DNA from: Enterobacteria phage ECP2307
Reading direction: 5' to 3' (one strand)
Sequence record: PP461118.1
Length of the DNA: 64,000 nucleotides
A program made the translations under genes and the position numbers. Numbering within the stretch: the first letter of the stretch is position 1; every line of letters starts with the position of its first letter. The notes under the pieces are model-generated. The model had not been told where the DNA came from, did not search any database, and saw nothing but the letters and a program-made list of their open reading frames with translations. Positions 41,839-42,235 of the stretch are shown here, piece by piece.

Positions 41839-41866
41839 TTGACATAGAAAATTTGGTGAGTATACT
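41839..41866 (+). promoter_or_regulatory. near-consensus sigma70-type promoter (TTGACA, about 16 bp spacer, TATACT)
   Basis: Read directly after the ligase stop. Confidence 0.5.
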
Positions 41867-41900
41867 GAGCAGCATAAACCAACGGGTACTCACCAGCATC

Positions 41901-42170
41901 ACTTAAGAGTCTTTTAAAAGGGTTTTTAAGTGATGCTCGGCCTGGCTCGGTAAGGTTTGGTCAGGTGTGGTGGGGTAAGGTTGGGTTAGGTGTGGGTAGT
42001 TAGTCTCAGCTACATTAAAATGAGACTTACCTTTTTAAAAGGTCTTTAAGAGGGTCTTTTAATGAGGTCTGGCGCGGTAGGGTCGGGTCTGGTCCGGTCG
42101 GGTATGGCATGGTGTTGTGAGGTATGGGTGGATGGTAGTAGCCACGTTAAAAATCTACCAAGTTTCTAAA
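41901..42170 (+). repeat. left pair of modular repeat units: AT-rich TTTTAAAAGG leader, about 65 nt GT-rich tract, conserved-loop hairpin
   Basis: Two tandem units; hairpins GTCTCA/TGAGAC and GGTAG/CTACC. Confidence 0.65.
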
Positions 42171-42235
42171 GAGTCTTCTGTTGAGGGTTCTTTACAAACA
42201 ACTTAACAATCAACTAAAGTGTGGAGCTAAATGCT

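Follow-up and report, generated by a model that had tools for sequence, protein, structure and literature searches.

The intergenic region behind the DNA ligase gene of a Felix O1-like phage very probably forms the first half of a VIPR locus of type II

What is encoded between the DNA ligase gene (40693-41832) and the 195-codon gene (42236-42823) of Enterobacteria phage ECP2307? The window, which is the whole stretch of 64,000 nucleotides that was analyzed (PP461118.1), derives from a Felixounavirus with 90-93% identity to the E. coli phages E9, Alf5, and wV8, and the intergenic span 41833-42235 contains a promoter, G-rich repeats, and hairpins. An earlier note, made from the sequence alone, read this region as a candidate R-loop origin or structured RNA and considered the arrangement to be undescribed. 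Comparisons with related loci and with a solved protein structure indicate that, very probably, a Felix O1-like phage has in the region 41839-42235 the upstream part, about one half, of its VIPR (Viral Interference Programmable Repeat) locus, which is of type II. The biology of the window is already explained by the described VIPR system and is not new, and the view that nothing of this kind is on record no longer holds after the preprints of April-June 2026. The alternative of a structured RNA was right in kind, in that the region holds noncoding RNA genes with a covarying 3′ tail and a conserved promoter, but it missed the pentamer code and the effector gene.

VIPR is described in two 2026 preprints, neither of which is beyond the preprint stage (bioRxiv 10.64898/2026.04.26.720920, 10.64898/2026.04.26.720927). 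The system comprises Vipr, a minimal RAMP protein, a vap accessory gene, and vrRNAs of ~100 nt, in each of which 9-16 YNNGG repeats are followed by a tail that does not vary and that is pseudoknotted in the SUSP1 clade (10.64898/2026.04.26.720920, 10.64898/2026.04.26.720927). In SUSP1, vrRNAs of ~100 nt that co-purify with Vipr have been sequenced, one Vipr protomer is seated on each pentamer repeat with the GGY buried and the NN dinucleotides displayed, and pairing of the NN bases with double-stranded DNA, in which one base of every three is skipped, leads to repression of transcription; vap1 is reported to enhance protection (10.64898/2026.04.26.720920, 10.64898/2026.04.26.720927). The guides of the SUSP1 clade are directed mostly against a satellite phage in E. 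coli, the skipped bases fall at codon wobble positions in the natural targets, and tape-measure and baseplate proteins of the satellite, which are related to those of the phage itself, are named (10.64898/2026.04.26.720920, 10.64898/2026.04.26.720927). Vipr has been placed as the sister group or the ancestor of the CRISPR RAMPs, and the system has been proposed to be older than CRISPR (10.64898/2026.04.26.720920, 10.64898/2026.04.26.720927).

The repeat tracts of the window, tracts a-d, are built from in-phase pentamers, GGY followed by two free bases (NN), with a strict 5-nt period and 11-13 pentamers per tract (9 clear and 2 degenerate in tract d). The guide tract of vrRNA-a (41929-41993, + strand) contains 11 clear GGYNN pentamers (41939-41993) that are preceded by two degenerate in-phase ones, and that of vrRNA-b (42066-42125, + strand) contains 12 GGYNN pentamers. 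The tract of vrRNA-c (43331-43395, + strand) comprises 13 pentamers, and that of vrRNA-d (43463-43517, + strand) has its nine clear pentamers behind the two degenerate ones at the 5′ end. Within the 64-kb window, GGYNN arrays are found only in two intergenic regions, all on the + strand, and the pattern is far beyond chance. As visualized in a profile of the family (n=491 pentamers), the first position is G in 80% and the second is G in 98%, the third is a pyrimidine in 99%, and the last two positions are free, at ~0.1 bit each. Across 12 related phages, the tracts of 44 homologous units range from 48 to 93 nt and always differ in length by multiples of 5. The GT-rich, periodic character noted earlier is real; the actual regularity, a strict GGY/NN pentamer register, had been missed, and tracts described as almost purely G+T are in fact 77-79% G+T, with G accounting for 47-51%. 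The GGGTC and TGGTC motifs had been taken for primase recognition sites, a resemblance that arises because GGT precedes variable C-containing dinucleotides; these motifs are not kept in the orthologous tracts of other phages. A scan at Rfam gathering scores gives no match in the whole window and none in six other array-bearing loci.

The order of elements in the locus is promoter, two vrRNA genes, vipr, vap1, terminator, and two further vrRNA genes. The promoter P1 (41839-41866, + strand) lies 5′ of the first vrRNA units and is of the sigma70 type, TTGACA-16-TATACT, in which TTGACA is placed at 41839/41840 and TATACT ends at 41866. The near-consensus character claimed for it is borne out by agreement with 11 of 12 consensus positions and by its conservation: P1 is identical or near-identical in SUSP1 and in each of the 12 related loci, and is also present in Felix O1, which has no vipr. 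Two tandem units of ~130 nt follow, as had been stated, at 41895-42030 and 42029-42160, with TTTTAAAAGG-type leaders and a spacing of 120 nt between the leader repeats. The second intergenic region, 43267-43643, contains an intrinsic terminator, two more units (43331-43552), and a second promoter-like site. The terminator (43278-43300, + strand), AGCCTCTTCGGAGGCT and then a T run, is placed after vap1 and is conserved in all vipr-bearing loci. The promoter-like site P2 (43571-43599, + strand; TTGACA-17-TATTTT) agrees with 10 of 12 consensus positions, precedes the gene at 43644-44027, and is conserved in all related loci compared. The downstream units are positioned directly behind the strong terminator (43278-43330), and a consensus scan recognizes no promoter in the leader that is termed Y below. 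In addition, an exact 13-nt repeat, AGGGTTCTTTACA, is observed at 41783-41795, in the 3′ end of the ligase gene, and at 42184-42196, just 5′ of vipr. A repeat of this length is improbable by chance in 700 nt, and AGGGTTCTTTACA may have been left behind when the cassette recombined or was inserted.

The gene that the upstream units precede, vipr (42236-42823, + strand), encodes a RAMP-type protein of 195 residues that is expected to bind vrRNA repeats, given its near-identity to SUSP1 Vipr. Compared with the solved "SUSP1 Vipr protein" (PDB 36pp, 36pp_D), 191 of 195 residues are identical (98%; phmmer E 2e-128), and the published RNA-contact residues, H17, E71, M72, R138, C173, D177, W178, and R179, are all present. 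By this likeness, the window protein qualifies as a Vipr, a minimal RAMP with an RRM core, a G-loop, and a thumb. The accessory gene vap1 (42826-43266, + strand; 146 aa) is identical in 146 of 146 residues to the SUSP1 gene directly after vipr. Family searches add little: vipr has no Pfam family and belongs to an unannotated PHROG, and vap1 falls in phrog_5926, function unknown, with no function assigned by Pfam or PHROGs.

The likeness to SUSP1 extends over the whole locus. Both loci occupy the same slot, from the DNA ligase gene to a 127-aa gene, and share the promoter, the X and Y leaders, and the A and B tails, the tails being identical. Both also contain GGY/NN tracts of 9-13 repeats, and their guides match the same kind of E. 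coli satellite. The main differences are the genus, Felixounavirus for this phage and Suspvirus for SUSP1, the arrangement of the units, two upstream and two downstream here rather than one and three, and the NN sets, which differ, so that guide specificities differ as well. Vipr, the repeat tracts, a structured tail, the vap gene, and skip-rule targets without self-targeting, the characteristics of the SUSP1 clade of type II VIPR, are all found here.

Two types of leader precede the tracts. Leader X (41895-41937, + strand; inverted repeat I1) is located immediately 5′ of the first tract and is predicted to form an RNA hairpin of ~20 bp with several G-U pairs. Because these G-U pairs are needed, the hairpin can form only in + strand RNA. 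Its computed folding energy is -21.1 kcal/mol (z -6.3), and none of 200 shuffled sequences is equally stable. A second copy (43434-43466, + strand) is likewise predicted to fold into a hairpin (-16.2 kcal/mol, z -5.2). Leader X may be a candidate processing element, at the 5′ ends of the vrRNAs, or a boundary element. Its apical loop carries an insertion of ~25 nt in several relatives (loci L006 and L008-L010). Leader Y (42029-42065, + strand), CCTTTTTAAAAGGTCTTTAAGAGGGTCTTTTAATGAGG, is covered by the repeat families D2-D4 and recurs before many units in all loci. In unit 2, the TTTTTAAAAGG leader is followed by the second tract (42066-42125) and then by a hairpin at 42133-42160.

The tails are also of two types, and both fit H-type pseudoknots as judged from the pairing of their arms. 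Tail A1 (41994-42030, + strand) would be composed of stems S1, 41996-42000/42009-42013, and S2, 42002-42008/42021-42027. In tail B1 (42126-42160, + strand), S1 would be formed by 42128-42131/42142-42145 and S2 by 42133-42138/42155-42160. The downstream counterparts are A2 (43396-43432, + strand), with the stem AATCGGA/TTCGATT, and B2 (43518-43552, + strand), with S1 at 43520-43523/43534-43537 and S2 at 43525-43530/43547-43552. The hairpin GTCTCA/TGAGAC with the loop GCTACATTAAAA, pointed out before, is present at 42003-42026. The hairpin AATCG..CGATT, which had been assigned to the right copy, is real (AATCGGA/TTCGATT) but is found at 43405-43431, in the second intergenic region and outside 41839-42235; the second hairpin inside this span, 42133-42160, is the other tail type, B1. 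The covariation reported for the hairpins is upheld, with three stem pairs that differ on both sides and an unchanged loop. Since the tails fit H-type pseudoknots, this "conserved loop" includes one pseudoknot arm. In type A tails, 97% of cells are paired, as opposed to ~30% when the partners are slid, and three pairs of S2 are changed on both sides; in type B tails, 93% of cells are paired. Between B1 and B2, the pseudoknot stem S1 changes from GTGG/CCAC to AAGG/CCTT, two compensatory pairs, and the hairpin stem S2 changes from GGTAG/CTACC to GGCAG/CTGCC, one compensatory pair. For both tail types, the independent covariation events are few, since only ~2 haplotypes exist per type. Taken alone, the tail hairpins are thermodynamically modest (z -2.0 to +0.3). 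A chimeric tail is observed in the Felixounavirus LF110P4 (locus L008, region 2), in which the 5′ arm is that of A2 (AATCGGA) and the 3′ arm is that of A1 (TGAGAC), such that the hairpin is broken. This tail is probably a product of recombination, and its unit is possibly dead.

A guide system of this kind predicts targets. The satellite was located through the window's own tape-measure and baseplate DNA (54474-56230, - strand), which was compared with complete E. coli genomes. An element of ~11 kb, present in 476 of 5426 such genomes, is presumed to be the satellite targeted by the guides. Its tape-measure and baseplate genes show 84-92% DNA identity to parts of the window genes, serine-recombinase genes delimit it, and its sites of insertion in the chromosome vary (yegS/yegR, yciI/tonB, dinB, DUF72, and ymdF/wrbA). 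The seven satellite copies sampled (L132-L138) contain neither vipr nor vrRNA arrays. For the guide scan of these seven copies, each GGY was replaced with one wildcard, following the published rule, and 200 order-shuffles were scored alongside.

For all four guides, a skip of 1 nt gives a higher best match than skips of 0, 2, or 3 nt. Guide a matches the satellite with 19 of 22 NN bases (L137, 1518-1550), in a noncoding stretch near the small recombinase gene of the satellite, and none of 200 order-shuffles reaches this score. Guide c matches with 20 of 24 NN bases, the first 10 dinucleotides being perfect, and again 0 of 200 shuffles reach the score. Its site lies in a satellite gene of 107 aa (L137, 6156-6191; L138, 6208-6243), in which the skipped bases coincide with codon position 3. 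The best matches of guide b (17 of 22, in the baseplate gene) and guide d (15 of 18) are not significant in the seven satellites sampled. When 41 distinct guides of the family are scanned against DNA of which about half is flanking chromosome, 16 of them beat all shuffles, and all of those matches are situated within the satellite. No self-match above chance is detected within the window (best ≤73% for the four guides), and BLAST searches with synthetic perfect targets for guides a and b reveal no satellite variant that matches better.

Given the near-identity of the two loci, the four units of the window would be expressed and loaded with Vipr as in SUSP1. Vipr protomers would polymerize on the vrRNA, one per pentamer, burying GGY and presenting NN, and the NN bases would read double-stranded target DNA with one base skipped per step. 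The resulting Vipr-vrRNA complex would repress transcription of the target. At least two of the four guides appear to be aimed at the satellite integrated in E. coli chromosomes, and the phage most likely uses its guides to silence this parasitic element.

There is considerable variability in the locus among relatives. Between phages, leaders and tails are nearly invariant, whereas the tracts are unalignable despite near-identical flanks, and the number of units ranges from 1 to 5. Either leader, X or Y, is freely joined to either tail, A or B, and individual tract alleles are shared among phages. A Vipr sequence at ≥90% identity is encoded in 117 Ounavirinae records (tblastn), and the noncoding region is matched in 230 records. 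Among Felix O1-like phages in which the promoter is kept, about half are without vipr and vap1 and have intact vrRNA units. In the complete genome of Felix O1, no vipr or vap1 is detected (best tblastn E 0.34), and one intact unit of promoter, leader, tract, and tail is present (locus L003, 3003-3300). Seven more Felixounaviruses (L011 and L142-L147) have a ligase-ORF87 locus without vipr and vap1, in which one or two units are kept and the tracts differ. The GGY register is preserved in these orphan units, their tails are intact, and their NN sets are diverse. Two of 11 orphan guides match the satellite, those of BPS17S6 (19 of 20) and radambza (19 of 22). The text of the first VIPR preprint makes no mention of orphan units, biogenesis, or maturation. 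Whether orphan vrRNAs are functional is doubtful; if they are, they could be loaded by Vipr in trans, for example from a co-infecting relative, or could act as decoys.

The arrangement in Bas63 (JohannRWettstein, L143) is the expected product of Y-leader recombination in a tootiki-like locus, and the cassette as a whole appears to be gained and lost through the leader repeats, a point that the first preprint's text does not raise, just as it does not raise a processing role for the leader hairpin. The orphan tract of Bas63 contains a (GGTTA GGTAT)x5 expansion of an allele that is without expansion in relatives, which is direct evidence for 10-nt slippage inside a guide. The element is not mentioned in the early genome papers on Felix O1 and wV8. 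In public annotations, it has been labeled as "DR_4" repeats in wV8 (L001, 3446-3503 and 4839-4896) and as a "possible binding site of StbAB" in KhF3 (L005, 2942-2952), and in the ASO1B record tail A is called a rho-independent terminator. All of these labels are older than VIPR, and they mislead.

The association between pentamer arrays and Vipr was also reached by an independent route, in which IMG/VR was scanned for the DNA pattern (GGTNN)7GGT. More than 120 loci matched, comprising perfect microsatellites as well as degenerate arrays of 10-50 pentamers in many unrelated viral contigs. The degenerate arrays are intergenic and co-oriented with the flanking genes, and often several occur per contig. 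In ~40 of the array loci, on unrelated viral contigs, the adjacent ORF encodes a Vipr homologue (phmmer E 1e-37 to 1e-4). On some unrelated viral contigs, GGYNN arrays run for 40-51 pentamers without a break, or many arrays stand back-to-back (L019, 532-771; L040, 6670-7125; L108, 1302-1890; L031, 4840-7398). These arrays are well above the 9-16 repeats per vrRNA and may be the staggered or overlapping arrays of the VIPR preprint, or something else. In another locus (L042, 1-700), five short arrays are interspersed with copies of a conserved hairpin unit of ~40 nt, CCCACGGCGGTCTAATGACCACCGTGGGC, for which no hammerhead or other Rfam match is obtained at the gathering score.

In a rival reading, the repeats have no function as RNA. 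They would be a degenerate pentanucleotide microsatellite or a recombination-prone intergenic repeat, kept up by slippage and unequal crossing-over and comparable to BIME, BOX, or the T4 PeSL mosaics. The length steps of only 5 nt (or 10 nt), runs of identical pentamers including the Bas63 expansion, the modular shuffling of leaders and tails, and a deletion of vipr-vap1 that fits recombination between leader copies are all in keeping with such an origin. Slippage alone, however, cannot hold positions 1-3 at 80-99% while positions 4-5 remain at ~0.1 bit; the tails covary, and a structure of the adjacent protein with RNA of this type has been solved. Recombination accounts for the variation of the locus but not for its purpose, and a repeat without RNA function is very improbable.

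An R-loop replication origin, in which the promoter would transcribe a G-rich non-template strand and a persistent RNA-DNA hybrid would prime phage DNA synthesis, is less probable still. The strong conserved promoter, the G content of the non-template strand, and the nearby polymerase and ligase genes would favor this reading, and a promoter that reads into G-rich non-template sequence is also a feature of ColE1 RNA II and of T4 oriF/oriG. Unlike in those origins, there is no conserved hybrid-forming sequence, unwinding element, or positional constancy here: the promoter is conserved, whereas the G-rich segment is hypervariable between near-identical phages and present in 1-5 copies. A terminator precedes half of the units. 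The only turn in GC skew, at ~36-37 kb, accompanies a flip in gene orientation and does not coincide with the locus. Neither the strict GGY/NN register nor the free NN positions would be required of an origin, and the NN bases match a foreign element, the satellite. Furthermore, the same arrays are found several times per genome, adjoining Vipr homologues, in unrelated phages, and the units of the window flank a gene whose product is 98% identical to a solved guide-RNA-binding protein. The proposal of an R-loop origin is unsupported because of the tract hypervariability, the copy-number variation, the terminator, the position of the skew turn, and the information that NN carries about a foreign element. 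The R-loop triplex that has been published for VIPR forms at the target DNA and not at the VIPR locus itself (10.64898/2026.04.26.720920, 10.64898/2026.04.26.720927).

Equally remote is a cis-regulatory leader, whether a TRAP-like site, a set of two-tetrad G-quadruplexes, or an RNA polymerase pause train, that controls vipr or the next operon. A TRAP attenuator site comprises 9-11 (G/U)AG triplets with spacers of 2-3 nt and is bound by the TRAP ring. The 5-nt period of the tracts equals the optimal spacing of TRAP triplets, and the likeness to the Bacillus system goes further, in that degenerate triplets with 2-nt spacers occur 9-13 times, one subunit of an oligomer contacts each triplet, and the spacers vary freely. 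Two-tetrad quadruplexes are possible from (GGNNN)n, and the arrays share the orientation of their flanking genes, often just 5′ of a ribosome-binding site. The conserved triplet, however, is GGY and not the GAG/UAG, or (G/U)AG, of TRAP, and the periodic binder is already known to be Vipr, an open helical filament of RRM/RAMP fold rather than an 11-mer ring. The spacers are informative in VIPR and not in TRAP sites. A requirement for quadruplexes is not apparent, with the G of position 1 replaced in 20% and the pyrimidine of position 3 kept in 99%, and units are also found downstream of genes and in phages without vipr.

Other candidates can be treated briefly. Chi or RecA-preferred GT-rich DNA, primase sites, Shine-Dalgarno decoys, pairing with the CCA end of tRNA, and an antisense Rho loading site, as well as a TRAP-like ring, two-tetrad G-quadruplexes, and elemental pause trains, were all set aside once the neighboring gene proved to match the Vipr protein of known structure. 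A packaging or terminus signal, by analogy to the short repeats of T7, was not retained; the termini have been called in conflicting ways in the literature (direct terminal repeats versus headful packaging), and the locus lies mid-genome in the records.

The type II VIPR locus resembles the crRNA-Cas7 backbone of class 1 CRISPR-Cas systems in that one RAMP protomer occupies each fixed step of the RNA, bases are flipped out periodically by thumb domains, and the variable guide is capped with a structured handle that is conserved. A CRISPR array, in comparison, is composed of identical direct repeats of 23-50 nt with unique spacers and has cas genes nearby. In the window, the repeat unit is 5 nt with two variable bases, no repeat-spacer organization is present, and the neighboring proteins have no matches to Cas families in Pfam or PHROGs; VIPR is without a repeat-spacer array, other cas genes, or evident acquisition machinery. 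The guide is noncontiguous, two of every five of its nucleotides reading two of every three target nucleotides. VIPR is also phage-encoded, and its demonstrated output is repression rather than cleavage.

VIPR represents a minimal form of RNA-guided DNA recognition, with one protein of ~20 kDa, one guide of <100 nt, and a noncontiguous code. For a Felixounavirus, four guides and their tails are now precisely annotated, together with likely targets in the satellite. Many therapeutic and typing phages of the family, including Felix O1 and Bas63, contain guide units without the effector. If their orphan vrRNAs do function, such a phage could share or hijack the effector of a competitor.
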